A stretch of 64,000 nucleotides of DNA from the NCBI GenBank assembly GCA_041742075.1, contig JBGSJJ010000015.1:1132-65131 (forward strand), written 5' to 3'. Both the position numbers and the translations under genes were made by a program. This document shows, one piece after another, positions 2,830-63,000 of this stretch; positions within the stretch are counted from its first letter, which is position 1, and every line of letters begins with the position of its first letter. Origin of the DNA: Minisyncoccia bacterium. GTDB lineage: Bacteria; Patescibacteriota; Minisyncoccia; Phycocordibacterales; UBA918. The notes below the pieces were generated by a model that saw nothing but the letters and a program-made list of their open reading frames with translations, was not told where the DNA came from and ran no database searches.

Positions 2830-5800
2830 CTAAAAAGTGGTCATGTTATGTTGCTTGCCATCTTCACGAGTGAGGGTAACGTCAAGCGAGAGTCCACGAA
2901 GCTGATTAACGAGTACGTTAAAGGCTGCTGGGGTGTGTGGGTGACTGATTTTTTCACCTCGTACAATTGAGTCGAAAGCGGCGCTTCGTCCAATGATATC
3001 GTCTGACTTAATCGTGAGCATTTCACGGAGTGTATACGCAGCACCATACCCAAGGAGTGCCCACACTTCCATTTCTCCGAAGCGTTGACCTCCCACCTGT
3101 GCCTTACCACCAAGTGGCTGTTGCGTAATGAGTGAGTAGGGTCCAATCGAGCGCATGTGAATCTTGTCTTCCACCATGTGGTGAAGTTTAAGAATATACA
3201 TGTAGCCGACTGCTGTTCGTTGTTCAAACTTTTCACCAGTACGACCATCACGAAGTTGCATCTTGCCGTCAGTGGCAATTCCGGCTGCTGTAAGTTCTGT
3301 CTTGATTTCTTCTTCGGTAGCAGAAGCAAACGGTGGCACGATAGCTTGGTAGCCGAGTGTGTGAGCGGCCATTCCCAAGTGAAGCTCAAGAATCTGTCCG
3401 AGGTTCATACGACTTGGTACGCCAAGTGGTGTCAGGATGACGTCAATTGGTCGACCGTCTTCAGTGTATGGCATATCTTCTTCAGGCAAGATTCGTGAGA
3501 TAACACCCTTGTTACCGTGACGTCCCGCGAGCTTGTCACCCACTGAAACATTTCGGACCTGAGCAATCGTGATATGGATTCGCTTAATCACACCACTCTC
3601 GAGCTGATCACCTTGTTCACGAGAAAAGATTTTTACCCCAATCACGCGTCCACGCTTCCCTGCCTCAAGACGAAGTGACGTGTCTTTTACGTCTTTGGCT
3701 TTCTCACCGAAGATAGAACGAAGGAGTCGTTCTTCTGGAGTAAGTTGTGCTTCACCCTTTGGTGTTACTTTACCAACCAAGATATCTCCCGGACGCACTT
3801 CAGCTCCAATACGGATAATGCCGTTTTCATCGAGGTTGCGAAGCTTCATTTCACTTACGTTTGGGATGTCTGGCGTCGTGACTTCCGGCCCAAGCTTTGT
3901 GTCTCGAACTGATACATCCAATTCTTCAAGGTGAATTGATGAGAACTTACTTTGCTTAACGAGTCGTTCAGAAATAATAATCGCGTCTTCGTAGTTTGCA
4001 CCACTCCAACTCATGAACGCCACCATCGCATTTTGACCGACGGCAATCTGACCTTGGTCAGTTGAAGACACGTCAGCAATAATGTCACCTCGTTTTACGT
4101 TCTGGCCAATTGATACCGACACGCGGTGGTAAAAGGCTGAGAAGTCGTTTGTTCGTTGGAAGGTAGTAAGCGTGTATTCGTGCTTCTTTCCATCCTTACT
4201 CTTAATGACGATATGTCGTGCATCAGCTTCGATTACTTCACCAGCTTCGTGCGCAACAAGCACACGACCAGTGTCCTTGGCTGAAAGTTCTTCAATACCA
4301 GTAGCAACAATCGGTGCCTCAGGGATGAGACACGGCGTTGCCTGCTTCTGCATGTTACTACCCATAAGCGTACGGTTCGCGTCGTCATGGTTCAAAAATG
4401 GAATCATTGAGGTCGCTACAGAGAACGCTTGGTTGGTAGCAATATCCATGAAGTTCACGTCTTTCTTCAAAACCGTGCGTGGCTCTCCATTAATACGCGC
4501 CTCCACCATGTCTGGTACGATTTTGCCGTTTTTGTCTACTTCAACCGCTGCATGAGCAATCGTAAAACCTTCTTCTTCATGAGCGTTTAGGTACACTACC
4601 TCGTCAGTCAAAACACCCTTTTCTACCTTTACGTATGGAGTTTCGATAATACCGAATCGATTGACGCGAGCGTACATCGCGAGGCGAAGAATAAGACCAA
4701 TGTTTGGGCCTTCTGGCGTGTGAATAGGACAGAGACGGCCATAGTGACTTGGGTGTACGTCACGTACTTCAAAGCCAGCTCGTTCACGAGTAAGTCCACC
4801 CGGTCCAAGCGCTGAGAGAGTTCGAAGACCTTCAAGCTCACCAAGCACGTTTTGCTGTGGCATAAACTGTGAAAGTTGGTTGGTAGTGAAGAACTCCTTG
4901 ATAGCCGCCTGGAGTGGGCGGGGGTTGACGATTTGCATTGGGAGAGACGTCTCTGCTTCAATCGTCGACATTCGGTCTTGAATGTTTCGCTTCATGCGAG
5001 TCATACCTACTCGAACACGTTGCTGAATCATTTCACCAAAGTACCGTACACGACGGAACCCGAGGTGGTCGATATCATCAGCCGCTGAGCCCGCGGTGTG
5101 GTTAAGCTTAATGATGTGGCCAACAATTAACTTGAAGTCTTCCAGGGTAATAGTTCGTTCGTCAGTCGCTTTTTTATCGATTGGTCGATGAAAACGTTCA
5201 TTGAAGTGGTGGCGACCAATTTCAGATAGGTCGTATCGTTGTGGTGAAAAGAGTGAGTTGATGAATTCCTTAGCATTTTCTACAGTTGCTAGGTCACCAT
5301 CACGAAGACGCTTGTACATTTCGATGTACGCATCGTTCGTATTCTTCACTGGGTCTTTAAGGAGAGTCGCTTTGATGTAGTCAGGTCCACGCTCAACGTC
5401 CTTGAAGAATTTTTCCATCTCCTTGTCAGTTTCAAGACCAAGAATACGGAGGAGTGACGTAAGAGGAATCTTCTTCTTGCGGTCAATCTTGATATAGAGG
5501 AGTCCATCAGCTTCAGACTCAACTTCCATCCATGCGCCACGAGCAGGAATAAGCTTCGCACCGAAATGCGTCTTACCTTTTACGTCTTGTGAGGTAAAGA
5601 AGATACCGTAACTTCGAGCCAGCTGTGGGACAACGACTCGTTCTACACCGTTAATAATGAAGGTACCGTGTTCAGTCATGACTGGCACGTCAGCCATAAA
5701 GATCTCTTGATCTTTAGCACTATCAAACGTCTTGTTCTTAAGAACAACCGTTGCCCGAAGTGGGGCGTCATAGGTAAGCTTGTTTTCCTTAGCAAAAGCT

Positions 5801-6006
5801 GGCGTGCATTTCGGCGCACCCATTTCGTACTTTTTGAACTCAAGCTCGAACTTCTTTTCCGAGTAGTCGGTAATCGGAGAAAATTCTTTAAATACCTCTT
5901 TTAGACCAGTCTCAACAAACCACTGGTATGAAAGCCGTTGTGGTTCAATAAGGTCTGGTAGGTCAATAAGCGGCTTCTTAGCCAGCTTAAATGTCTTCTT
6001 TGGCAT
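2830..6006 (-). CDS. rpoB: DNA-directed RNA polymerase subunit beta (RpoB). Start taken at MPKKTF; the ORF extends to 6120 with upstream Mets at 6057 and 6120 as alternatives.
   Basis: 1096-aa ORF. KKPLIDLPDLIEPQ N-terminus and the beta subunit fork, flap and clamp motifs are conserved. Lies immediately upstream of rpoC. Confidence 0.93.
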   Translation of the reverse strand: MPKKTFKLAKKPLIDLPDLIEPQRLSYQWFVETGLKEVFKEFSPITDYSEKKFELEFKKYEMGAPKCTPAFAKENKLTYDAPLRATVVLKNKTFDSAKDQEIFMADVPVMTEHGTFIINGVERVVVPQLARSYGIFFTSQDVKGKTHFGAKLIPARGAWMEVESEADGLLYIKIDRKKKIPLTSLLRILGLETDKEMEKFFKDVERGPDYIKATLLKDPVKNTNDAYIEMYKRLRDGDLATVENAKEFINSLFSPQRYDLSEIGRHHFNERFHRPIDKKATDERTITLEDFKLIVGHIIKLNHTAGSAADDIDHLGFRRVRYFGEMIQQRVRVGMTRMKRNIQDRMSTIEAETSLPMQIVNPRPLQAAIKEFFTTNQLSQFMPQQNVLGELEGLRTLSALGPGGLTRERAGFEVRDVHPSHYGRLCPIHTPEGPNIGLILRLAMYARVNRFGIIETPYVKVEKGVLTDEVVYLNAHEEEGFTIAHAAVEVDKNGKIVPDMVEARINGEPRTVLKKDVNFMDIATNQAFSVATSMIPFLNHDDANRTLMGSNMQKQATPCLIPEAPIVATGIEELSAKDTGRVLVAHEAGEVIEADARHIVIKSKDGKKHEYTLTTFQRTNDFSAFYHRVSVSIGQNVKRGDIIADVSSTDQGQIAVGQNAMVAFMSWSGANYEDAIIISERLVKQSKFSSIHLEELDVSVRDTKLGPEVTTPDIPNVSEMKLRNLDENGIIRIGAEVRPGDILVGKVTPKGEAQLTPEERLLRSIFGEKAKDVKDTSLRLEAGKRGRVIGVKIFSREQGDQLESGVIKRIHITIAQVRNVSVGDKLAGRHGNKGVISRILPEEDMPYTEDGRPIDVILTPLGVPSRMNLGQILELHLGMAAHTLGYQAIVPPFASATEEEIKTELTAAGIATDGKMQLRDGRTGEKFEQRTAVGYMYILKLHHMVEDKIHMRSIGPYSLITQQPLGGKAQVGGQRFGEMEVWALLGYGAAYTLREMLTIKSDDIIGRSAAFDSIVRGEKISHPHTPAAFNVLVNQLRGLSLDVTLTREDGKQHNMTTF

Positions 6007-6412
6007 GGCGCCTACAGACGAATATTCGTCGGCCTTAGCAGTCTTATACATCGACATAAGTAAGAATGTTACGCGGTTTGTAAATCGCGATCTGCTTTGT
6101 CGTGCTTCGCAATTTGACACTCACCTTACACACAAAGTAAGGCTCGCACCAAATTCCTCACACTCCGCGCATCTCATCGATTTTCAACCCGCTTCGTTAG
6201 TAATGGAATGGGTTAGCAATGAAAACCGGCACATAAACGCACAAAAAGCACATCACCACTGACGTGTCCTTCTTGAGTATTTATTGTTGCACGATAACTA
6301 ATTGCATTCTGTGTGTTGTGGGGAAACACAGTGCTGTATATACACATTTCCCAGGTGTGCATACATCTACCTCCGCGACTTCACGTATCGTGACTCATCC
6401 GTGGTCGTTGGT

Positions 6413-6447
6413 GCGTTAGTGCCGGAGAGTATACTAGAGACCTTTTG
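6413..6447 (-). promoter_or_regulatory. Candidate sigma70-type promoter (TTGACT-N17-TATACT) for rpoBC, implying a 5' leader of about 400 nt.
   Basis: Minus strand reads ttgactttacaaaaggtctctagtatact. There is no ORF between it and the rpoB start. Confidence 0.35.
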
Positions 6448-6646
6448 TAAAGTCAACTTTTCCACTTGACAACAATACTACCAAGTAAGTGATATTTTCT
6501 GCAATATTCTTGACAAATTGACAAGAAAACACAATGTAATTCAATCTTGAGCGCGCTCCGCCTATTTTCTTGTCTAGACGACAGCGAAAATTCCTCACTC
6601 TCGTTCGTACCAGAGGAAAAGCACCACTAGGTACTTTTCCTCCATA

Positions 6647-6706
6647 CCCCAATTTTCTTATGGTCACCCTCGACAAGCACAGCGGGAACGCTGTGCTTTT
6701 TCTTTT
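6647..6706. repeat. Direct repeat copy 1 (52/52 with 1 mismatch, about 60 nt with looser flanks). A duplicated copy of the trmD 3' end lying just downstream of the mazF stop.
   Basis: ttcttatggtcaccctcgacaagcacagcgggaacgctgtgctttttctttt matches 7358-7409. It contains the hairpin AGCACAGCG-ggaa-CGCTGTGCT. Confidence 0.85.
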
Positions 6707-7040
6707 ATAACCCCAATTGCAGGCGCAACACATTCTCAACTGCTTGTAGATCACTAGCTGAGAGGTCAGCGATACGAGTGCCGAAACGCTGATGACTTAC
6801 GGTTCTAATCTGGTCAGTCATCGCTTTACTCCGCTGACGCTTAACAGTAACTAAACACTCACTTGGGTACACATGAGTGGTATTCGAAGTCAGCGGAACC
6901 ACCTGCACACGATTAAGATGCTTGTTAGCCATGTCATTACTGACTACAATCGCCGGTCGCTTCTTTTTCACTTCACTCCCTCGAGCAGGATTAAGATTGA
7001 CCCACCACACGGAGCCTCTCTTTGGTTTTAGAACCGCCAT
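6705..7040 (-). CDS. mazF: MazF/PemK/Kid-family endoribonuclease toxin (type II TA).
   Basis: 111 aa with VWWVNLNPARGSEVKKKRPAIVVSND...VVPLTS, typical of PemK/MazF. Overlaps the upstream antitoxin by 13 nt. Confidence 0.8.
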   Translation of the reverse strand: MAVLKPKRGSVWWVNLNPARGSEVKKKRPAIVVSNDMANKHLNRVQVVPLTSNTTHVYPSECLVTVKRQRSKAMTDQIRTVSHQRFGTRIADLSASDLQAVENVLRLQLGL

Positions 7041-7279
7041 ACATTTTCTGCTTCAAGCGTCTCATCAGTTCCATGTAGCCACTCACCCGCTTCGGCCTCA
7101 CGTGCGCTATCTTTAGCCATAGCTTTATACCCAGCTTCTATATCATCAACAATAACGTGCGGTCGAGCTAGTTGACTCAAGTACTCACCAACACCACGCG
7201 CACCGACTCGTGCTCGCAAACCTGCGTACACCTGCTCATCGAGCATTATTGTAATTTTCTTTTTTATGGCTGTTTTCAT
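7028..7279 (-). CDS. Antitoxin, probably leaderless, starting MKTAIKKKITIMLDEQVYAGLRAR (RHH/CopG-like). The ORF track extends it to 7306.
   Basis: Small ORF overlapping the toxin start. Operator palindromes sit immediately 5' of the ATG at 7279. Confidence 0.6.
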   Translation of the reverse strand: MKTAIKKKITIMLDEQVYAGLRARVGARGVGEYLSQLARPHVIVDDIEAGYKAMAKDSAREAEAGEWLHGTDETLEAENVWRF

Positions 7280-7316
7280 AATACGTATTATAATACGTAT
7301 TAGCATTTTGTGTCAA
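7280..7316 (-). promoter_or_regulatory. Promoter and operator of the TA cassette: TTGACA-N18-TATAAT, with two tandem 10-bp palindromes AATACGTATT overlapping the -10. The ATG lies about 7 nt after the -10.
   Basis: Plus strand 7280-7301 reads aatacgtattataatacgtatt (two perfect palindromes). The -35 tgtcaa is at 7311-7316 on plus. Confidence 0.55.
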
Positions 7317-7330
7317 TATACTGTTGTGCG

Positions 7331-8005
7331 CTACTCTTTCGCACGCCAAGCCTCAATCTTCTTATGGTCACCCTCGACGAGCACAGCGGGAACGCTGTGC
7401 TTTTTCTTTTTGTACTCCAGGACCTCAGGACGAGTGTACGTTTCCCCACTCGTTGCGCGTTCATCTTCAAGTGAGTCATGGGTACCAAGCACGCCTGGAA
7501 TATGCCGAACAACCGCGTCGATAATCGTGAGCGCCGGCAGTTCACCACCAGTGAGCACATAATCTCCAACTGAGATCTCTTCCGCCTTCAAAATACTTTT
7601 TACGCGACCATCAATCCCCTCGTAGCGACCTGAGATAAGGACCACGTGGTCGTACTTTTTGGCGTACTCTTTGGCAAGCGCTTGCGTGAATACCTGTCCC
7701 CGAGGCGACATAATCAGTGTCTTAATTTTCTTTGCATCTTTCTTCTTCCCTACTGCTTTCTCCCAAGCTCGCAAAATTGGTTCAGCAATCATCACCATAC
7801 CCGGCCCGCCACCATACGGCCGATCATCAACTTTCTTGTGCTTATCTTTCGTGAAGTCTCTTGGATTGTAGTAACTTACCGCTATTTTTTTTCCTCGCAC
7901 CTTAGCTCCCTTTCCCTTTTCAGTCTTCTGCGCACGACCAAGCACGCTGGCGCTCGTGTAAGCTTCGCAGACTTCTGGAAAAATTGTTATGACGTGAAAA
8001 TGCAT
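7331..8005 (-). CDS. trmD: tRNA (guanine37-N1)-methyltransferase TrmD.
   Basis: MHFHVITIFPE...PYGGGPGMVM...LTGGELPA. Canonical SPOUT TrmD motifs. Confidence 0.93.
   Translation of the reverse strand: MHFHVITIFPEVCEAYTSASVLGRAQKTEKGKGAKVRGKKIAVSYYNPRDFTKDKHKKVDDRPYGGGPGMVMIAEPILRAWEKAVGKKKDAKKIKTLIMSPRGQVFTQALAKEYAKKYDHVVLISGRYEGIDGRVKSILKAEEISVGDYVLTGGELPALTIIDAVVRHIPGVLGTHDSLEDERATSGETYTRPEVLEYKKKKHSVPAVLVEGDHKKIEAWRAKE
7350..7409. repeat. Direct repeat copy 2, lying inside the trmD 3' coding end. It encodes KKKHSVPAVLVEGDHKK.
   Basis: Near-identical to 6647-6706. Confidence 0.85.
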
Positions 8006-8068
8006 AGTAATAATAAAATCCTAGCATGGAAACAGGTAAGTAAGAACTCTTACAGAAACCACCCCAAC

Positions 8069-8106
8069 TAAACCTTTACCTATCATTAATGATAGGTAAA
8101 GGTTTA
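8069..8106. promoter_or_regulatory. 38-bp perfect palindrome taaacctttACCTATCATtaATGATAGGTaaaggttta overlapping the stop codon of the TrpR-like gene. Motif copy A. Either an operator or a bidirectional terminator hairpin.
   Basis: Perfect inverted repeat with 18-bp arms, followed by aaatttttt on plus. Confidence 0.6.
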
Positions 8107-8558
8107 AATTTTTTGAGTACAGCATCTGCCAGATTAAAAAGTAAAAAATGCATTGGGTATTGTTTGCGTAAATGACTGAACGTCAATGATTCTATATGCT
8201 CTTTTTGCTGTCGATTTTGGAGTGACTTTTTTGCTTGTCTATCCTCGACTTCTAATTGGTACGCTTTGAGTGAATCTTCGTAATGTGGCACCTGTCCCTG
8301 TAACCACTTCCGAGTTCGTGAGAAAGTGTTCGGACTTACATTAAAATTGTAGCTTATTTCTGCTTGTGATTTTCCGGCTAAAATGAGCTGTGCAATGAGT
8401 ATGCGTCTTCCGATTGTTATTCGCTCACTTTCAGTCAACAGTTCATTTATAAAGGTAACAACTCCATCCCTACTACTCATACACTCTGCAACAGACATAA
8501 GCGCATCGAGTGTGACCTGTTTCTCACTGTACTTTAATTTATTTATACTTTTACTCAT
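8076..8558 (-). CDS. TrpR-like / YerC-YecD family HTH DNA-binding protein. It occupies the position where rimM normally sits between the KH gene and trmD.
   Basis: 160 aa. LLTESERITIGRRILIAQLILAGKSQAEISYNFNVSPNTFSRTRKWL resembles the TrpR/YerC helix-turn-helix. Confidence 0.5.
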   Translation of the reverse strand: MSKSINKLKYSEKQVTLDALMSVAECMSSRDGVVTFINELLTESERITIGRRILIAQLILAGKSQAEISYNFNVSPNTFSRTRKWLQGQVPHYEDSLKAYQLEVEDRQAKKSLQNRQQKEHIESLTFSHLRKQYPMHFLLFNLADAVLKKFKPLPIINDR

Positions 8559-8572
8559 ATCACTCTATTTTA

Positions 8573-8588
8573 CTATCATCAATGATAG
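8573..8588. promoter_or_regulatory. Palindrome CTATCATcaATGATAG (motif copy B), 15-30 nt upstream of the TrpR-like start codon and overlapping its putative promoter.
   Basis: Shares the 15-nt core tatcatcaatgatag with copy C at 23501-23520. Confidence 0.5.
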
Positions 8589-8603
8589 ATAGAAATAGTA
8601 TGA

Positions 8604-8642
8604 AAATACCCTTCTTCGCTTACAAGCGAAGAAGGGTATTTT
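8604..8642. terminator. Bidirectional rho-independent terminator: 17-bp perfect stem AAAATACCCTTCTTCGC-ttacaa-GCGAAGAAGGGTATTTT.
   Basis: Perfect palindrome with A/T-tract flanks, between the KH gene stop and the TrpR-like gene start. Confidence 0.7.
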
Positions 8643-8659: not shown

Positions 8660-9013
8660 TTATATCTTCAAATCATCTATCGCCTCGTCGAGGGATTTTG
8701 GACTAACGCTCACCTCTTCAGTTGCTCCTCCGTAAGACTCAGTGGTGTCACTGTGCATAATCCGGCCACCTTCTGGCTCGTTAATCTTAAGGTTCACGCG
8801 GGCGTCGTGCTTCATACCGACGACTCGAAGTAGCGTACGGATCGCTTTCGCGGTATTGCCTGAACGACCAATAATTTTGCCCATATCTTCGGCATGTACG
8901 TCAAGCGTGAGTAACACTCCCATTTCATCAACGGTTCGATTTACTTTTACACTTTCTGGATGGTCCACAAGCGCCGTTACTACTGTTTCTAGAAATTGCT
9001 GATCTTCTTGCAT
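8660..9013 (-). CDS. KH-domain RNA-binding protein (YlqC/KhpA-like, UPF0109).
   Basis: GKIIGRSGNTAKAIRTLLRV KH motif. Conserved position after rpsP. Confidence 0.75.
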   Translation of the reverse strand: MQEDQQFLETVVTALVDHPESVKVNRTVDEMGVLLTLDVHAEDMGKIIGRSGNTAKAIRTLLRVVGMKHDARVNLKINEPEGGRIMHSDTTESYGGATEEVSVSPKSLDEAIDDLKI

Positions 9014-9158: not shown

Positions 9159-9638
9159 TTAGACTACTTTGGTTTCTTCCTCTGTCGGTACTACTTCAGC
9201 TGGAGTTTCCTCAACTACTGCAGTCGCAACTTCTTCAACCGGAGTGGCGGCGGCTTCTTCGGCTGCCTGCGCAACTGCGAGTGCCTCAGCTTCTGCCTTT
9301 GCCTTCGCGTCAGCTTCTGCTTTCTTAGCATCTTCCGCAGCCTTAATAGCGGCTTCGTCGATAATTGGAGACTTCTTAGAAAGCGCGTTTACTTTCTTGC
9401 CTTCAATCACTTTCTTCGTAATAAGAAGATTGTGTACGGTATCAGAAGGCTGTACTCCCTTACTCATCCAGTCAGTCACTTTCGCGCTGTCAATAATAAA
9501 ATGCTTTGTTTTTGGGTTGTATGAACCAACCTGATCCACGTGCTTATTGCTCTTTGGACCAGTTCGTTTATCAGTGACCACAATCCGGTACGACGGATCG
9601 TTTTTTCGGCCAACTCGTTGTAATCGCATCATTAACAT
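9159..9638 (-). CDS. rpsP: 30S ribosomal protein S16 with a long Ala/Glu/Lys-rich C-terminal extension. Start taken at MLMMRLQRVGR; the ORF track extends it to 9689.
   Basis: MRLQRVGRKNDPSYRIVVTDKRTGPKSNKHVDQVGSYNPKT matches bS16. Confidence 0.85.
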   Translation of the reverse strand: MLMMRLQRVGRKNDPSYRIVVTDKRTGPKSNKHVDQVGSYNPKTKHFIIDSAKVTDWMSKGVQPSDTVHNLLITKKVIEGKKVNALSKKSPIIDEAAIKAAEDAKKAEADAKAKAEAEALAVAQAAEEAAATPVEEVATAVVEETPAEVVPTEEETKVV

Positions 9639-23452: not shown

Positions 23453-23695
23453 ACATTCAGAGATTGCTTCGGCTACCAACCGAGGAGGTATACAGTCTCT
23501 ACCTATCATCAATGATAGGTAGAGACAACCTACGATATTAGTCTAATCTGACCCTTAAGTGCTGACGAGAAAACACTTGTCAGAAACTCGGTGGAACCGC
23601 GGTTACAAGTACCCTTTCGGTACTTAAAAATCGTCCGAGTGAGCACACGAACTTTCGTGTATTCACTCGGACGATTTTTCAGTTATTAGTTTTAA
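23453..23695 (+). promoter_or_regulatory. Candidate T-box riboswitch leader for thrS. T-box core AAACTCGGTGGAACCGCGG at 23584-23602, competing terminator at 23626-23680, and a candidate Thr specifier ACC(A) in a hairpin loop at about 23473-23476.
   Basis: GGTGGAACCGCGG matches 13/13 of the GGTGGNACCGCGG T-box core. ACTCGG just 5' of UGGA can pair with CCGAGT in the 5' strand of the terminator AAAAATCGTCCGAGTGA...TCACTCGGACGATTTTT, which is the antiterminator/terminator alternative. The N of UGGN is A, complementary to U73 of the tRNA-Thr in this window. Confidence 0.5.
23495..23526. promoter_or_regulatory. 32-nt perfect palindrome GTCTCTACCTATCATcaATGATAGGTAGAGAC (motif copy C) inside the thrS leader.
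   Basis: Shares a 20-nt core with copy A (8075-8098) and a 15-nt core with copy B. Confidence 0.6.
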
Positions 23696-44190: not shown

Positions 44191-44448
44191 CTAGTTCTTG
44201 GTCTTTTTCGCTGCTCGGGCCTTGAAACGCTCTACCCGTCCAGCAGTATCCATCACCTTTTCTTGACCGGTATAGAATGGGTGCGAAGCACTTGAAACGT
44301 CTACATACGCAATCGGATATTCAACACCGTCAGTCCATTTCGCTTTGTCAGTTGCTTCTACGGTTGAACCCACGAGAAATCGTGTTCCACTTGAGTTATC
44401 GTGGAAAATGACCGCTCGGAAGCCTTTTGGATGAATATCTTTTTTCAT
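44191..44448 (-). CDS. rpmE: 50S ribosomal protein L31 (type B, lacking the zinc-binding cysteines).
   Basis: MKKDIHPK...HPFYTGQ...GRVERF. Confidence 0.88.
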   Translation of the reverse strand: MKKDIHPKGFRAVIFHDNSSGTRFLVGSTVEATDKAKWTDGVEYPIAYVDVSSASHPFYTGQEKVMDTAGRVERFKARAAKKTKN

Positions 44449-44500: not shown

Positions 44501-44600
44501 GGACTTTTTACGCCCGAGGTACCTGGGTCAATAATCAACTTCGTATGCGAGGCAAACAAGGAAAAATCGCCGAGGTGAACTCTATCCTTCAGTGAGGCGA
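44501..44600. repeat. Repeat unit R1 (about 95 nt): a terminator-like hairpin plus a TTGACC-containing module. About 90% identical to R2.
   Basis: ccgaggtacctgggtcaataatcaacttcgtatgcgaggcaaacaaggaaaaatcgccgaggtgaac...ttcagtgaggcgattttt. Confidence 0.8.
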
Positions 44601-44736
44601 TTTTTATTGGCCTGGAGAGCCTCGGGTAAAGAATTGCTTCAAAGACAAGGAATGGGTAACGGGGTTCAGGAGACGTATTTCTATACGGTGACTGAGCACC
44701 GTGGGACCCATGACGCAGTATTTGAAGCAATTATTG

Positions 44737-44835
44737 CCCGAGGTACCTGGGTCAATAATCGACTTCGTATGCAAGGCAAACAAGGAAAAAGCGCCGAGGT
44801 GAACTTTTTCGTTCAGTGAGGCGCTTTTTCCGCTG
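44737..44835. repeat. Repeat unit R2, a direct repeat of R1. The partial inverted copy GATTATTGACCCAGG at 44863-44880 can pair with its 5' end.
   Basis: Direct alignment with R1 shows 5 substitutions and a variable loop. Confidence 0.8.
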
Positions 44836-44857: not shown

Positions 44858-46204
44858 TTATTGACCCAGGATGCGGATTTCGTTCTCTAAGCGCTGCATC
44901 CGACTAACCACCTGATCCCCATAAAACTGGTTCTCCGGACGACTGGCTCCTCCCCAACCGGCATAGTACCGAAGAGCTGCCAGGCGTGGACTTGAGGCGG
45001 CGCCGTTGTCACGAAGCAAGAGAGCGGTCGCGAGAAAGGCATCTTGGTTATTGAAAGGATTGGCGGGAGTGCTTTTACCGATCAGTGAACGGATGGCATC
45101 AGAAGACGCGTTATACTGCCAGCCACTACCTGAATTGGTGTACCCGCCGTAAATCGCCCAGGTGCTTGGTATAAACTGTGATGGCCCCATTGCCCCTCCC
45201 CAGCCATACGGAACGCCACCGCGAATAAGCGGACAGGAAACTTGCTGACGATTGGTATCAAAACCGAGCGCTGTGCCAATCGCTTTAAAGACTGGAGCGT
45301 CGCGCTCAGGGTGCATCACAGGTCTACCACCGCGTATTTCACTGTATATACAACTGCCGAGGTTCGAACCGTAATTAGTCTCTTGCTCAAGAATTGACAA
45401 AATCAGTGTTGGGGGAATACCGGCTAGCCTGCCAGCAGTTTGAGCCAGGGTAACTGCTTGGGGAAACGGAATGGCGCCGCCACCGCCGAGGAGATCAAAC
45501 AGCTGAGCTCGCAGTTGCGCCGCTGATTTTTCTTGCGTCTGCAGAAGTTGCTGGTACGCCTGCTCCTCTCCTTTAGTGACACGTAAAATACGTTGCTTCT
45601 CCGCTTCTTGCTTTTCAATCCGTTCGCGCTCCAACTCTTGGATTACTTTCATCTCAGCCTCAGTCAGTTGCTTTATCTCAAGCGACTCCTTCTCAAATTG
45701 TGCATCAGACCGAATCTCCTGAAGCGCACTAAGAGAATTATTGAGCGACTCTTTCACGGCATGAAAACTATCTACTTCGGAAAAGAAATCGGAGAAGTTT
45801 TTGTTACTGAGGAGTATCTCAACCAAGGTGAAGTCATCGGCCGAACGTGTCTCTCGCATAATTTTGGCTAGTGACTGCTTTTGCTTAACCAGTCTATCGT
45901 TTAAGACTTCAATCACCTCTGCCTTGTCGCCGATTTGGGTAGTGAGAGAATCAATCGCGAGTTCGCGAGCTTGTACGCCGAGCTCGGCTTTTTTTATCTC
46001 ACCAGAAATAATAGTAATGTCACGTTCGAGTGAGCGACGTTCACTTTGCTTGTCTTCAACCAGCAGTCTCTGTTGAAGAATTTCGCGTTCTACTATTTGT
46101 AGCTGAGCCTCAATCCGAGCCCGCCTTTCTGCGTCAGTTTCGGCATACCCAAACTGCGGAAAGAGCATAGTAAAACTAAGTACGAAAAATAGTATCGCTT
46201 TCAT
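44858..46204 (-). CDS. Secreted coiled-coil protein with a C-terminal lytic transglycosylase (MltB/Slt35-like) domain.
   Basis: Signal peptide. Long heptad-rich region. C-terminal motifs GPSQFIPSTW and YGGYTNSGSGW typical of the MltB family. Confidence 0.6.
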   Translation of the reverse strand: MKAILFFVLSFTMLFPQFGYAETDAERRARIEAQLQIVEREILQQRLLVEDKQSERRSLERDITIISGEIKKAELGVQARELAIDSLTTQIGDKAEVIEVLNDRLVKQKQSLAKIMRETRSADDFTLVEILLSNKNFSDFFSEVDSFHAVKESLNNSLSALQEIRSDAQFEKESLEIKQLTEAEMKVIQELERERIEKQEAEKQRILRVTKGEEQAYQQLLQTQEKSAAQLRAQLFDLLGGGGAIPFPQAVTLAQTAGRLAGIPPTLILSILEQETNYGSNLGSCIYSEIRGGRPVMHPERDAPVFKAIGTALGFDTNRQQVSCPLIRGGVPYGWGGAMGPSQFIPSTWAIYGGYTNSGSGWQYNASSDAIRSLIGKSTPANPFNNQDAFLATALLLRDNGAASSPRLAALRYYAGWGGASRPENQFYGDQVVSRMQRLENEIRILGQ

Positions 46205-57018: not shown

Positions 57019-60000
57019 CTAGATGGCTCCCCCGCCGCCGCCACCCCCGCCCGTGGCCTGGTGGTAGACCCTGACTTCGATACCATCGAGCTGTAGGTCT
57101 GCAATGCTCGAGAGCACCCGGACCCGGAGGGTGGCGTCACTAAACTCGGCTGGCGTCCATGAGTGGCCCCAGGCATCGGTTGGGCCACCGAGCGTATAGA
57201 CTGCATCAGTGTTAGCTAGCGTTGGGGTGAGTTTGGTACTCGTGTAGTTTGAACCAGTGTTCCAAGATAGGTCAACCGCAATCGTCCCGGCTTGGTTTGA
57301 GTAGCGACTATCAAGCTTTACTTCGATACCGACAATCGTATTCGTGACCGGTATCGCAAAACCAAAACCGTTAAAGACATGGGTAGTTGCGCTTGGTGCT
57401 TGGGCGCGGGTGTTGTCTGAAACAAGCGCATTGCCCCCGTTTGTCCAACCACCGCTCTGGGCTGAGGGCCTAAGGAAGTTTGGGTTAGGTGCAATATTTT
57501 CTCCATCAGTTTCTTGGCCGGCTTCCCCGCCTCCTTCCTCTCCCCCGCCCGTTTGTACGCCCTGGCCGGCTGGTGGAGCACCACCAATAGACGCACTACT
57601 GCCTCCTCCACTACTACCAGTATTAGACTCACGGTTATGGTAGACCTGCGAGACTGCTCCACTCACGTTCGCTGAACCTATAATGTCTGCTGGGTAGAGC
57701 TTAAGCACTAAGGCTTCTCGCTTGTCGATATCGACGGTGTCACTCGTTACAATGAAGTTTTGCGTGGTTGAAGAAATAAACGAGGTGCTGAAGACAATTG
57801 TCCCCTGGGTCGCCGATGAAGTTGCAAACACACCGGTGCCCCCTACCTGCACGTCTCCTCCATCAAGCAGGCTATTGCTGTTGATGTCACGATAGAGTCT
57901 CAGGTCGGGAATAGAGCTGGTACTCACTCGATTGCTTATATCAGAGACTCGTAGTGTGAGTGAACTAATGGTGGTCGTGGCTGACGGCGTCAGCGAGAAA
58001 GCAAAGATTGCCACATCATTTTGGTTTTGAAAGCTAAAGACGTTACTCGGTTGCCCATCTTCATGTTCACCTAAGACGAGGTCGGGCACTGCGACATACG
58101 ACCAGTTAGTGGTATTGCCGCTATCAACGCAGCCGGTGAGGCAGCTAATCGGCGTCGTCGTAACACTAATGTTGCGTGAGTCCTGCACGTTCAAGTACGA
58201 AACCGTTGCGGTGGCGTACGGGTCAATGTAGTACTGCGTACCTGGGCTGGTCGAACGGAGAGAAAGTAGATTACCGGCGGTGCCGTTTAGCGTAAGCGTG
58301 CCTCTGGTTTCAAACTCATCACCAGCTCCAAACGTGAGGGTTGAAGAGCTGGTGACATTCTTGGTAAGGTTGAAAAAGCTCGTGGTAGCGTTGTTCTGTA
58401 TGGTCTGAGTGGTACCAGTAAGATAGACCGTACTTGTGGCAGCTCTAAAATTGCCATTAATAGTAAAGTCCCCACTGACACCAAGTGAGCTGGAAGCGAT
58501 TAAGGTCGCTCCACTATTTATGGTTAGGTTGGTAGTCGACGCATTCATTGGTAACGTGGTAGTACCGGCACTCGCTATGATAGTACCGAGGTCGCTAGTG
58601 CCGGTGAGAGTACCCGCGAGTTCCCCTGATACCCTGTACTCGTTAATCTCGACACCTGATACCCCGATAACGTATAAATTCGTACCGTCGGGATTAAAAG
58701 CAAGGCCGGTAGGAGCACCTTCTTGACTTGATACACTGAGGTTTCTTACGAAACTACCCGTCGAAACGTCCCAAGGAGTAGCAAGTGTGTACTTCACAAC
58801 CCTAGCAAACTCAACCCCTGAGACATAAAGTTCTGTGCCCAAAGCATTAAAGGCTATGCCCGATGGATATGAGTCCTGCGCCGCCACCGAGAAGGTATCA
58901 ACAAACGAACCGGTTGATACGTCCCACGGGGTACTGAGGTTGTATTCGTTAATGTCGAAGCCAGCTTCTCCAGAAACATACAACTTAGTACCATCGGGAT
59001 TAAAGGCAAGGTCCATTGGAAAAGTTTCCTGCGCCGCCACCGAGAAAGTATCAACAAACGAACCGGTTGATACGTCCCACGGGGTACTGAGGTTGTATTC
59101 GTTTATATCATTACCGAAATCACCGAGCACATAAAGTTTAGTTCCATTGGGATTGAAAGCTAAGCCGGACGGAGCAGTGTCTTGCCCCGCTACCGAGAAA
59201 GTATCAACAAACGAACCAGTTGATACGTCCCATGGGGTACTGAGGTTGTATTCAGTGATGTCGTCACCCGAAGAACCTATGACATATAACTTTGTACCGT
59301 CGGAATTAAATTCTAGGCCCATAGGAGAAGTCTCTTGTCCAGACACACTGAAAGTGTCCACAGGAGTTACTTGGTTACTGAAATACCCTTGCCCGCTTAG
59401 ATTTAGCGTACCACCATTATCACTGAAAGTTCCAGAGTTGGTCAGGTCACCGGTCGTGAGTGCTGTAGCGGGTGCGGTGAAGGAACCACCAGAAGCAATC
59501 GTAAGTTCGGAGGTCGAAGCGACGGTACTGCTTGAAACATATGAACCAATAATAGTAACACTACCGAGACTGGAAGAGCCCGTTAACGTACCATCGAGTC
59601 CCCTACCTGTTCCCGTGAGAAAAGCGAACTGTCCCGAGGTGGCGTTGTAGATACCGTCGTTGTCAAAAGAGCCACTGAAGGTAGACGAGGCAGCTGCCCT
59701 TAGGCTCGTCCCCGGCCAAACGTAGAAGGTTTGGTTACCTCGAATGTTGAGCTGGTCTTGGTTGGTACTAGTCGAAGTAGTAGTAGCACTGAACTGCAAG
59801 TCACTGTCGTTTTCAAAATCATACAAGGCAAATGGCGTCATGGTCATTTGGCTCGTAGTGGCACTTCTCGCAATCACGTGATCTTTATAGAGATTGAGTC
59901 CCGAGACACTGTTAGTTGAGGACGCTTGGTAGACCAAGGCGGCACGAACCGTGGTCGAGGCGTCTACGAAGAAGGTGTAGGTGGTCGAAGAGAGAAGCGA

Positions 60001-63000
60001 AGTCGTGTCCACACTGAAACTAAAAGCTCCGTTCGCGCTCACCGTGGTGGTTGACTGCGTACTTGGAGTAGTCGTACCGACAGCCAGTGTAATCGTATGG
60101 ACGCCAGTCCGCGGTGTCACACCCTGATCGTTGTACAGTGTTCCAGATAGAAGTATGGTCGGGGCAGCTGGTGGCGCGCCGATAGTCCACTGCGGGGTCT
60201 CTAGGTATTCGGTTAGAGCGGTGACACTACTGGTACCAAACCCCACCCGGAAGTCGTAGACTTCCCCATTGCTGGCGGTTCCGGTCGCGACCAAGCTCCA
60301 CTCAAGCTCGGTGTAGTCATCAGTTGAAATAGCAATACTGTCGGTCGGGTTTTCGTCGTCCTGAATTCGACCTTGATCGAAGTCACCAGTATTCTTACCA
60401 GTCGGTGCACTAAGTTGCGCCGTGGTTGACGCCCCCGAGGCAGCAATGTTGCTTGAGGCTCCAAACTCAATCGATGATGGAATCGTGTAGTAGACATGAG
60501 CCACAATCTGGTCAACGCGGGCAATCCGGTTAGCTCCGTTTGCTACTCCTTGCACCGCAAAGGCAAAGCCAAAGTTACCATTATTGAAGTCGGCTGGGGT
60601 CCAGGTCGTATTCCACAACGCCGTACTACTTCCATACTGCATCTGCCGATCACCAGTACCCCAGTTCGTGGTCACCGCTATGTTTGAACCCACGAGCGCA
60701 CCGTTGCGCATTAACTGCGCCGTGTTGTCACGAATTTCTCCCGCCGAACCCCCAAATCTGTGTCGCTCGATATGGACCTCAATACCAGTAATAGTAGCGG
60801 ACGTCGGAATATTGAGTCCGCCACTGGTTGACGCCACCAGATAGTTTGAAGCAGTGGTACTCGAAACCGTTAATTGCGCAAATACATTGTCCGAGCTGCT
60901 GCTATTGCCTGGATTAGTCCACGCAATCGAGCCAGCGCTGGTATTGTTGTTCCCTGTAAGCGCTGTTTGATAACTTGCTCGAACAGTGTTGGTGGTTGGT
61001 GTCTCAGCTGGTGGAATAGCGATAGTATAAGAAACCCACTGTTCAGTCGCACTGGTAAAGGTGGCTGGGTCGTGGGTACTTGACGCCGTAATGTAACGAT
61101 GAGCGGTGTTTGAGTTGGCACCATTGGTGGTACTGGCAAACTGCGTTATAAGCCCACTATATCCAGACGGTGCCACTGTCGCGGCGGTGTTGGTGCCAGC
61201 TGAAGTGTCCCCCGAACGAGTCACAATCGATAAGTAGTCACGGGCCCCGCTGGTAACTAAGTTTGGTGGATTGCTGTTTGTACCACTACCGTCAGCCGAG
61301 AAAGCGACGGGTGTACCGGCGCCACTGATGCGATACACAATATGCGTACTTTCTTCCGAAGTACCACTGGTGATGGTGAGTACTGGCGAGGTCGTGGTCG
61401 CTATCTGCCAATACACTGCTCCCGTTGTAAGATCACCGTTATAATCAACAGCAAACCTCTCCCAACCCGCTGGTTGATTAAGTGTGCTGGTACCAGCTGC
61501 TGTGTCGAGACTTATGAGTACCATCAGCAAATCCCCTACTTGTACCCCTGACGGCATAGTAATAACGTGCGCGGTTGTGTTTACATTTGACCGACCGCTT
61601 GACGTAGCTTGGATAACCGGAAATGCATCGTCAACCCCGACCGACTTCCACACGCTTGAAGAAGAAATCTTGTATTGGAGACCGAGTTGACTTACTGTGC
61701 TCGTGCTCGTGAGATCAACCAAGGTACGGAGGCGCACGTTTTGATTTACATCAGCGGTGATACTGGTATCTTGTGCTGCTTTCCAGGTTGCTGTCGTTTC
61801 TGAGCCGTCATCGTTACGGAAGCGAAAGCCTTCTTGTGCAATTGAAGACGGGGCACTATACGTACCGATGGTAAACGAAGCACTCGTATCATACGAGCTT
61901 AACGCTGTACTACTCGACTGACCAAGTCTGACTTGATAGACCTCACTTGTCGTCGCGGTACCGGTCGCCATAATACTCCACTCAAACTCGGAGTAGTCGC
62001 TCTCGGAAATAGTCACGGTGTCAGCTGGGTTCTCGTCGTCCTGGATTCGTCCAACGTCAAAGTCACTCGTACTCTTTCCGGACGGGGCGGTGAGCTTAGC
62101 GGTAGTGTTTTCTCCGGACGCAGTAATATTGCTACTTGGCGCCAGCACGATTGGTGGCGGGAGCGTGTAGTAGACCTTGAGGTAGAGATGGTCAACATTC
62201 CCAATTCGGTTGGCGCCTGAAGCTACTCCTTTGGCTGAGAACATCAAACCAAAGTCACTAGCGTTTATTTCGGCCGGTGTCCAGGTGGTTCCCCAGAGCG
62301 CTGTGCTACTTCCGTAGTTTATGTACTGCGGATTATTAAAGATAGTTCCCGCTGCTAAGTTACTACCAATCACACTGCCCGCTTTAACTAGTCGAACTGA
62401 TGAATCTTGAATTTCTCCTGTAGTACCACCATTTGAATACGTTTTTACAGCTGCCTCAATACCTACAATAGTTGCTTGCAGTGGTATAGAAAAACCAAAA
62501 GCATTAGCTTCAAGGTAGCGTGAACTAGTGACACCTGACGCAGTGAAACTAGCATAGCTCGCATCTTCATCAATAATGTTTGTCACACCACTCCAGGCGA
62601 GAGTGCCAAATGAATTGTCTTCACTTCCGACCGGATTGCTATCGAACTGGGTTCGAAGCGAACCTTTAGTTGGTGTCTCTTTCGGCGGAATCGCCATTGT
62701 GTACGTTATCCAAAATGAAGCGAGCGCAGGTACTGACTCCGGCTGTTCACTCACAGCCTCAAGATACCGATGCATAGTCTCGACACCATGTTCACCATTT
62801 ACACCATCTGCTTGTTTAAGAATAAGACCACTGTAGCCTGCTGATGGTCTCCGCAAAAGACCTACTGCACCAGAAGCGTCATAGGACCTTGCTGCTATCC
62901 ATAAATACTTTCTCTGTCCATCAGTCGTAAGCAGTGGAAAATCAGGATCAGCAGTCGTGCCTTCAAGAGCCTGCAGTACCGGATCACCCGCACCACTCAC

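Follow-up and report, generated by a model that had tools for sequence, protein, structure and literature searches.

A 64-kb window of contig JBGSJJ010000015.1 (64,000 nt, the whole stretch analyzed here), from an uncultured Paceibacteria genome of the candidate phyla radiation, contains a small MazF toxin–antitoxin cassette that lies between two direct copies of the 3′ end of trmD, the gene for tRNA m1G37 methyltransferase. One copy (proximal) belongs to trmD itself, and the other (distal) follows mazF (Table 1). We consider it very likely that this arrangement records an insertion in which incoming DNA replaced the end of the gene, and probable, at a lower level of confidence, that a minimal cassette moved as a unit through the repeats. 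The principle is already known; the novelty lies in trmD as the target, in the group to which the host belongs, and in a form that is both minimal and recombinase-free.

In their best register the two copies align over 74 nt with 88% identity and a spacing of 704, and within this alignment is a core of 52 nt with a single mismatch (51/52). An earlier, sequence-only reading of this DNA had described direct repeats of about 60 bp around a MazF cassette, and its coordinates were right to within a few bases. The 52-nt core occurs twice in the window and not at all in 100 shuffles. Of the 172 loci fetched for comparison (designated by L numbers), only L161 has the core, again in two copies; the other 171 lack it. 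A dispersed terminator element, which that reading had named as the alternative, is rejected on this distribution, with two copies in the window and otherwise only those in L161. An assembly artefact is likewise rejected, because L161 is an independent assembly (∼90% identical) with the same layout.

L161 (JGI 3300071567) is the closest genome that we found, with identities to the window of 96.5% in the RpoB N-terminus, 97% in the KH protein, 91.5% in TrmD, 91.5% in the antitoxin, and 92.8% in MazF. There, too, trmD is followed by the promoter with its operators, the antitoxin gene, mazF, and a second trmD end. L162–165 and L171 have an empty site, in which one trmD end is followed by a short spacer and the rpoB promoter. 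Such a site had been predicted from the sequence, and the proposal that an element entered the 3′ end of trmD carrying a copy of its target is supported by these empty and occupied sites. The relatives with empty sites are not the same species, their TrmD identity being ∼91% in L162–165 and ∼85% in L171. In a neighbor-joining tree built on the TrmD body and the RpoB N-terminus, the window and L161 are sister to a group of L001, L168, L166, and L162–165, with L004 and L171 outside that grouping, and the empty sites are nested among the occupied ones. Thus, several hallmarks of an element flanked by attachment (att) sites are present, namely direct repeats, one of them inside a target gene that is kept intact, and a single-copy empty site in related genomes. 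One claim about the surroundings was wrong for this clade, however. The sequence-only reading took trmD and rpoBC as genes that are not normally neighbors, but the order S16–KH–trmD–rpoB is conserved in most of the fetched genome loci, with ∼190 bp to 5.6 kb between the trmD stop codon and rpoB. Because the two genes are adjacent in most relatives, the cassette does not bring non-neighbors together.

The ends of the distal copies speak to the question of which copy is original. In L161 the distal copy ends IEEWRS, and the native TrmD of the empty-site locus L162 ends IEEWRSS and a stop codon; the residues are the same and the codons differ (gaa/gag, cgg/aga, and agt/tca). The distal copy of L019 has the sequence VLVEGNHKEIEKYRSK and a stop codon, exactly as at the native end of L016, and differs in type from the end that L019 itself uses. 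The two copies in L001 show 14 synonymous versus 6 non-synonymous codon differences over 25 codons, with only three of the six non-synonymous differences in the first 22 codons; the corresponding numbers are 9 and 7 in L067 and 5 of each in L026. The synonymous bias in L001 and L067 argues that the copies evolved as coding trmD ends in different lineages and were then juxtaposed. The tails now in use read IEAWRAKE in the window and IEAWRANK in L161, each followed by a stop codon, and the IEAWRAKE tail shares the low divergence between window and L161 that characterizes the toxin–antitoxin block. The tail and hairpin of the distal pseudo-end in the window resemble the distal copy in L001. Since the distal tails are of the native type, we infer that the distal copy is the displaced original end of trmD and that the working tail came with the cargo. 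The roles that the sequence-only reading gave to the two copies are thus reversed in evolutionary terms, since what it called an out-of-context copy after mazF appears to continue into the original tail, and the working tail appears to be cassette-borne.

The cassette and its repeats also have a history different from that of the flanking genes. Between the window and L161, 42% of codons are identical in trmD codons 101–197 and 79% from codon 198 onward (Fisher p = 0.002), and the figures are 53% for the rpoB N-terminus, 75% for the antitoxin gene, and 79% for mazF. The jump in identity falls at the upstream edge of the repeat (window ∼7414, codon 198), where eight of the nine preceding codons differ and the next twelve are identical. 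Four-fold sites are 0.50–0.52 identical in trmD and rpoB and 0.66–0.68 identical in the toxin–antitoxin genes. Downstream, homology with L161 stops at the end of the distal core and resumes only at the rpoB promoter. The lower divergence implies that the block made up of core, tail, toxin–antitoxin genes, and core is younger than its flanks, which indicates that it moved horizontally or was exchanged after the window and L161 split. Further, MazF identity to the window is 81% in L081 and 56% in L086 at ∼77–78% TrmD identity in both, so toxin–antitoxin similarity does not track host similarity, and incongruence between the cassette and host trees is suggested. The cassette has no compositional anomaly (GC 0.46–0.48, like its neighbors).

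The arrangement recurs at trmD. A readable 3′ flank was available for 97 trmD loci, the window and 96 fetched ones, and six of these have a second trmD end downstream on the same strand. The copies enclose the toxin–antitoxin cassette in the window and L161, a 75-nt spacer with two CTATCATnnATGATAG palindromes in L001, a different antitoxin/MazF pair in L026 (36% identical; repeat ∼90 nt including the stop codon and hairpin), an open reading frame (ORF) of 289 aa without a family in L067 (repeat ∼118 nt), and 2.1 kb encoding a DUF5122 protein (664 aa) in L019. By this comparison, duplications of the trmD 3′ end with other cargo are present in at least three further lineages, and the cargo in these other events is small (0.08–2.1 kb). 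The left edges of the distal copies lie ∼20–29 codons before the stop codon, around a KKK..VP region. Two such repeats around unrelated content in a relative had been put forward as grounds for abandoning the insertion. L001 has exactly this arrangement, but we read it as a reusable slot rather than as a sign that no insertion occurred. Homologous cassettes with the same operators also stand directly after trmD in L081, L085–89, and L096, and these have no distal copy, which means that the repeat is not an obligatory part of the cassette. L004, also without a distal copy, holds the remnant of a cassette after an internal deletion that joined the N-terminus of the antitoxin to the C-terminus of mazF. 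A possible remnant of a distal tail after mazF in L081, viewed by eye, was too weak to claim.

Two of these loci have features of their own. The spacer in L001 (3557–3633) contains two 20-bp palindromes and is bounded by a 7-nt direct repeat, TGTAGGC; it could be either a tiny insertion of palindromic DNA or a lost cassette's operator region. In L026 (6573–8112), two different antitoxin/MazF pairs follow trmD in tandem, the first inside the trmD-end repeats and the second just past the distal copy, which suggests serial insertions at one site. Elsewhere, the trmD–rpoB spacer holds toxin–antitoxin pairs, DUF2335 (L169), a DUF4870-like protein (L172), UppP, and others. It also holds ORFs without a family, which include one of 104 aa in reverse orientation (L161:6440–6754), one of 139 aa (L170:1194–1613), and, in L166 and L167, a membrane-like ORF of 360 aa that overlaps the trmD end (L166:4683–5765); no second trmD end was detectable in linkage with the 104-, 139-, and 360-aa ORFs. 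Judging from these contents, the trmD–rpoB spacer is a recurrent insertion hot spot beside two essential genes.

The cargo in the window has the organization of a type II toxin–antitoxin module of the MazF/PemK class. The toxin has the full-length fold, matching MazF9 of Mycobacterium tuberculosis over residues 1–110 (1.4e-19), and NCBIfam equivalog models for MazF score below their cut-offs, which places it in the family, yet not as an equivalog of Escherichia coli MazF. An exact look-up of the protein found no match on record. The antitoxin gene lies upstream in the same orientation, with an overlap of 13 nt, and the two genes are conserved together in L161, L081, and L085–89. The antitoxin could not be placed in a known antitoxin or DNA-binding family: no Pfam match exceeded the cut-off (DUF7240 at 0.0055), and NCBIfam and PDB gave none. 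The promoter, the two palindromes, and the overlapping mazF that had been read from the sequence all stand. The promoter is conserved in L161, L081, L004, and L086. The palindromes overlap the −10 hexamer and the transcription start, and the putative operators are kept as TAATACGTA..AATACGTATT in homologous cassettes. The antitoxin ATG (7279) is only 7 nt past the −10 hexamer, which makes a leaderless mRNA plausible, and the antitoxin transcript is probably of this kind. The whole is compact, with 14 nt between the trmD stop codon and the −35 hexamer and with the mazF stop codon abutting the core. Once in place, the module would presumably behave like any ordinary type II system. Its probably leaderless operon would be repressed by the antitoxin, or by antitoxin and toxin together, at the two palindromes over the −10 hexamer, and MazF, if an active mRNA endoribonuclease, would make loss of the cassette costly.

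How might this cassette have entered trmD? Starting from the observed structure, the occupied and empty sites, the native distal tail, the discordant divergence, and the recurrence at trmD, we propose a unit that combines a look-alike of the trmD 3′ end and an operator-bearing promoter with the antitoxin gene and mazF. The unit, as a circular or donor intermediate, would enter the 3′ end of trmD by Campbell-type (single-crossover) insertion, through recombination over a stretch of ∼52–62 nt common to the incoming DNA and trmD. As a result, trmD would end with the tail supplied by the cassette, and the original tail and its stem-loop would be displaced 704 nt downstream as a pseudo-end. In this way, the repeat-bounded unit would have moved between lineages. 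Because it has no recombinase of its own, the cassette would have to depend on an integrase gene outside it or on homologous recombination by the host between the repeats.

Several observations weigh against this mechanism. The 704-bp unit holds only the two toxin–antitoxin genes, without the element-encoded integrase or recombinase expected of an att-flanked element. Nor was any recombinase among the first 25 families listed in each of two Pfam scans, one with the 39 ORFs in the window that reach 138 aa or more and one with 49 large ORFs in the trmD–rpoB gaps of relatives, and a Pfam scan of all ten integrase-sized ORFs in the window found no integrase. The viral contigs contained no copy of the core and no relative of MazF, and no phage or plasmid copy was found. 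The repeat lengths vary among events (∼66–118 nt), and the repeat-less homologues mean that the duplication may be secondary, confined to one sublineage. Finally, a single crossover predicts that each genome should have one host-derived, diverged core, but the cores are nearly identical. Pairwise, the four cores (two per genome, window and L161) show just 0–3 differences over 62 positions, compared with ∼20 expected at the synonymous divergence of the cassette (∼33%). The proximal core of the window and the distal core of L161 are identical, and the two distal cores differ at 2 of 62 positions despite being non-coding, although the distal tails that adjoin the cores are highly diverged. To be reconciled with a single crossover, this similarity needs additional gene conversion between the copies or selection. 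The former would be naturally confined to the shared core, and the latter might have as its target a recombination site or a structure formed in RNA or DNA; either could have kept the cores alike.

With no integrase found, we consider three possible agents, namely a trans-acting integrase, host RecA using the repeats, and one-sided recombination after DNA uptake. The statement in the sequence-only reading that the element integrated as integrases do is thus an analogy, there being no integrase in the cassette and none listed for the window or the related gaps. The evidence leans in two directions here. The clustering of the edges and the exact abutment of the mazF stop codon and the core in two genomes incline us toward a defined site, whereas the variable repeat lengths, the lack of a recombinase, and the repeat-less homologues incline us toward host recombination. 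The latter observations are also what one-sided homologous recombination after DNA uptake (homology-facilitated illegitimate recombination) would lead one to expect. In that scheme, a relative's fragment consisting of the 3′ part of trmD and a toxin–antitoxin cassette already situated behind it is anchored in trmD by homology, and its far end is joined illegitimately, at an A-rich microhomology just upstream of the recipient's trmD end, thereby duplicating that end without an element-specific recombinase or att site. The repeat-less cassettes after trmD in L081, L085–89, and L004 are plausible donors, the Pfam scans listed no integrase, the repeat lengths differ between events, proteins in the window have the N-terminal methylation motif of type IV pilins, which is compatible with DNA uptake, and the spread of toxin–antitoxin islets by recombination at flanking core genes is accepted in the literature (PMC13617665). 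But the anchor needs near-identical DNA, and trmD upstream of the repeat is saturated at synonymous sites even relative to L161. Moreover, random illegitimate joints should neither cluster within ∼10 codons across independent events nor fall, in the window and again in L161, precisely at the mazF stop codon. On balance, one-sided recombination seems unlikely as the origin of the arrangement, albeit the strongest of the competing explanations.

A descent from a larger, integrase-bearing element (a prophage or an integrative and conjugative or mobilizable element) that sat at the trmD 3′ end and lost everything but its addiction module, leaving an att-flanked, cis-mobilizable relic, seems less likely still. 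Integrase-less relics flanked by att sites are known from Streptococcus thermophilus, where they are called cis-mobilizable elements (CIMEs). The layout is the same as that of e14, icd, and icdC in E. coli (PMC13626634), and toxin–antitoxin modules often stabilize integrated elements (PMC11062541). Yet the cassette is fully compact, with no gene fragments left, none of the 97 trmD loci examined shows a large integrase-bearing element at the site, and the cargo of the other events is also small. The least probable of the explanations, in our judgment a very remote one, is that nothing moved, the pair being an old resident of the trmD–rpoB spacer whose second trmD end arose by local duplication or template switching and gene conversion. 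The cassette does occupy the same slot in distant relatives, and the similarity of the cores within and between genomes, which exceeds that expected of neutral DNA, would fit gene conversion. However, this account does not explain distal tails that are native in type and differ from the proximal ones mainly synonymously, like orthologues from different lineages, nor a block younger than its flanks, empty sites nested among occupied ones, and toxin–antitoxin similarity that fails to follow the host (the L081 and L086 proteins at equal TrmD distance). Insertion with a replaced gene end remains our preferred reading. As a bolder extension of it, which we put forward tentatively and regard as doubtful, the trmD 3′ end could be a dedicated docking site in Paceibacteria for recombinase-free micro-cassettes with trmD-end look-alikes. 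These would be exchanged among lineages via repeats of ∼60 nt, either by host recombination after DNA uptake or by a not-yet-recognized recombinase, with cargo that so far consists of toxin–antitoxin pairs, small regulators, and membrane or surface proteins.

Known systems share parts of this architecture. CIMEs are att-flanked and have neither an integrase nor other mobility genes, so their mobility would depend on the integrase of a related element. The trmD cassette is similar in that direct repeats of a gene 3′ end flank cargo without mobility genes, but no partner element or integrase is known for it, and the 52–62 nt of identity are long enough for RecA alone. The e14 element inserts in the 3′ part of icd, supplying a replacement end and displacing the original as the pseudo-end icdC; most differences between the icd and icdC ends are conservative or synonymous, and a chimeric gene forms again when the element is excised (PMC13626634). 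Thus, e14 and phage 21 at icd in E. coli, like the cassette at trmD, replace the end of a housekeeping gene and displace the old one. In contrast, e14 is a 15-kb prophage remnant with an integrase and SOS-induced excision, whereas the unit at trmD is 0.7 kb, without a recombinase, and in a host of the candidate phyla radiation. SGI1 is a genomic island at the 3′ end of another tRNA-modification gene, trmE (PMC8409611), but islands of this type span tens of kilobases and contain int and xis. Toxin–antitoxin islets (PMC13617665) resemble the present case in being lone pairs between core genes without mobile signature genes, and the islet model matches in patchy presence and erosion, of which L004 would be an instance. 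Islets are usually described without an insertion scar, however, and the route of their acquisition has been called poorly characterized (PMC13617665), whereas the trmD site keeps the target duplication, the replaced end, and an empty-site comparator.

Other classes of element fit less well. Like the trmD cassette, integron cassettes combine a compact ORF unit with a palindromic site-like sequence behind it, and toxin–antitoxin cargo is frequent in them (bioRxiv 10.1101/2022.08.03.502626). An integron gene cassette is nevertheless rejected, since there is no IntI, attI, or array, there are only two copies, and the cassette has its own promoter. The 52-mer is not an attC site either; on inspection it is trmD coding sequence with a perfect 10-bp stem and without a GTTRRRY/RYYYAAC pair. 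Insertion sequences, transposons, and miniature inverted-repeat transposable elements are rejected by the absence of terminal inverted repeats and a transposase and by a duplication of 52–74 nt versus 2–14 bp. As for the cargo, MazEF and PemIK likewise have a PemK-fold toxin (111 aa here), a small, overlapping upstream antitoxin gene, and promoter palindromes, and MazF9 of M. tuberculosis is the nearest solved toxin. The window pair differs from them in an antitoxin without a match among the Pfam, NCBIfam, and PDB families and in a transcript that probably lacks a leader.

A hairpin within the repeat had been suggested as the recombination core. Its stem, AGCACAGCG/CGCTGTGCT, is present in both copies (−15.4 and −16.7 kcal/mol), but only the window and L161 have it in strong form; L162, L166, and L081 have a weaker stem, and L026, L067, L019, and the proximal copy of L001 have none. 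A general conserved recombination core is not supported by this distribution, the hairpin being strong only in one subclade and absent from other duplication events, so the suggestion is unproven. Together with the TTTTTCTTTT that comes after it on the plus strand (6675–6698 and 7379–7402), the hairpin has the score of a canonical intrinsic terminator, one that is oriented antisense to trmD and mazF and has no plus-strand gene nearby. On the minus strand, the mazEF message has two strong stem-loops at its 3′ end, formed by the distal region (z = −6.1). The hairpin at 6613–6642 is probably the former 3′ stem-loop of trmD, and the stem of its counterpart in L001 differs in sequence.

All genes at the site are on the minus strand, in the order S16, KH, TrpR/YerC-like, trmD, antitoxin, mazF, and rpoB (Table 1). 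The relatives of the TrmD protein are all from Patescibacteria, mostly metagenome-assembled genomes labeled Paceibacteria or Parcubacteria-type.

Table 1. Features of the trmD–rpoB site, in window coordinates
Feature	Coordinates	Strand	Evidence or comment
rpoB	2830–6057	−	
rpoB promoter	6428–6456	−	Marks where the insertion slot ends downstream and where L161 and L162 become homologous again
13-bp hairpin, old trmD stop codon in the loop	6613–6642	−	z = −6.1 for 6600–6720
Putative displaced original trmD 3′ end (pseudo-end)	6627–6704	−	Reads in frame as KKKHSVPAVLVEGDHKKIGVWRKST and stop
Distal repeat (attR-like)	6642–6715, core 6655–6706	−	Begins at the mazF stop codon
mazF, 111 aa, intact, MazF/PemK family	6705–7040	−	PF02452 (PemK_toxin) 1.6e-28, residues 7–108
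Antitoxin gene, 83 aa	7028–7279	−	ORF; gene in L161, called at 83 aa, is 91.5% identical
Two tandem AATACGTATT palindromes, putative operators	7280–7289, 7292–7301		0.07 expected by chance
Cassette promoter TTGACA-N18-TATAAT	7316–7287	−	12/12 consensus match
TrmD tail now in use, IEAWRAKE and stop	7331–7358	−	Would have arrived with the cassette
Proximal repeat (attL-like)	7346–7419, core 7359–7410	−	Encodes KKKHSVPAVLVEGDHKK of TrmD
trmD (tRNA m1G37 methyltransferase), 224 aa	7331–8005	−	PF01746 3.3e-44; 92% identical to P0001; last ∼27 codons lie within the repeat and the imported tail
TrpR/YerC-like regulator gene	8076–8558	−	
KH-domain protein gene	8660–9013	−	
S16 gene	9159–9638	−	

On the two sides of the cassette, further features were observed. 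rpoB has its own promoter (TTGACT-N17-TATACT, 6456–6428, minus strand) and then a long conserved leader (region 6055–6456). The 5′ part of this leader (CCGGCACTAACGCA...GGATGAGTCACGA...) is 97% identical to L161, as against ∼83% for neighboring genes. A motif, TATAAT-N-CAC(T/A)AACGCA...GATCTCG.GTGAGT, occurs upstream of rpoB in at least 15 Paceibacteria loci, where the leaders are 96–380 nt long, most of them 145–380 nt. Within the leader of the window, a terminator-like hairpin is followed by a T-run (6266–6249), the stem sequences differing in relatives. The leader may be an undescribed regulatory leader or attenuator of rpoBC; an Rfam search with the repeat, the hairpins, and the rpoB leader gave no match. 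On the other side, the TrpR/YerC-like gene is bracketed by CTATCATNNATGATAG palindromes (8080–8095 and 8573–8588), a third of which lies 15 kb away (23503–23518; 0.13 expected by chance). The block around this gene (7940–8610) is 92–98% identical to L161, with four-fold sites at 0.89 and neighbors at ∼83%, and is absent from L001 and L162–166. It looks like a second small, recently exchanged regulator cassette beside trmD.

Two observations concern more distant parts of the window. The spacer between rpmE (44191–44448) and a 448-aa gene (44858–46204) contains a 94-nt direct repeat (44512–44605 and 44736–44829; 93% identical, spacing 224), each copy ending with a hairpin and a T-run and without a match in Rfam, which may be a duplicated small RNA or terminator module. 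An ORF of 2303 aa on the minus strand (57019–63930), with 153-nt tandem repeats at 58823–59281, probably encodes a giant surface protein.

Most lone toxin–antitoxin islets keep no trace of the route by which they arrived. The trmD site, in contrast, keeps a full record: the duplicated target, the replaced end, the displaced end, a sister genome with the insertion, and relatives without it. It does so in a lineage of the candidate phyla radiation, the Paceibacteria, whose mobile elements and gene flow are little known. The locus thus provides a system for asking whether a trans-acting integrase or host recombination acts on a captured piece of an essential gene. If the docking-site possibility raised above were true, the trmD 3′ end would be an integron-like slot that lacks the integrase of an integron, in bacteria from which very few mobile elements are known.

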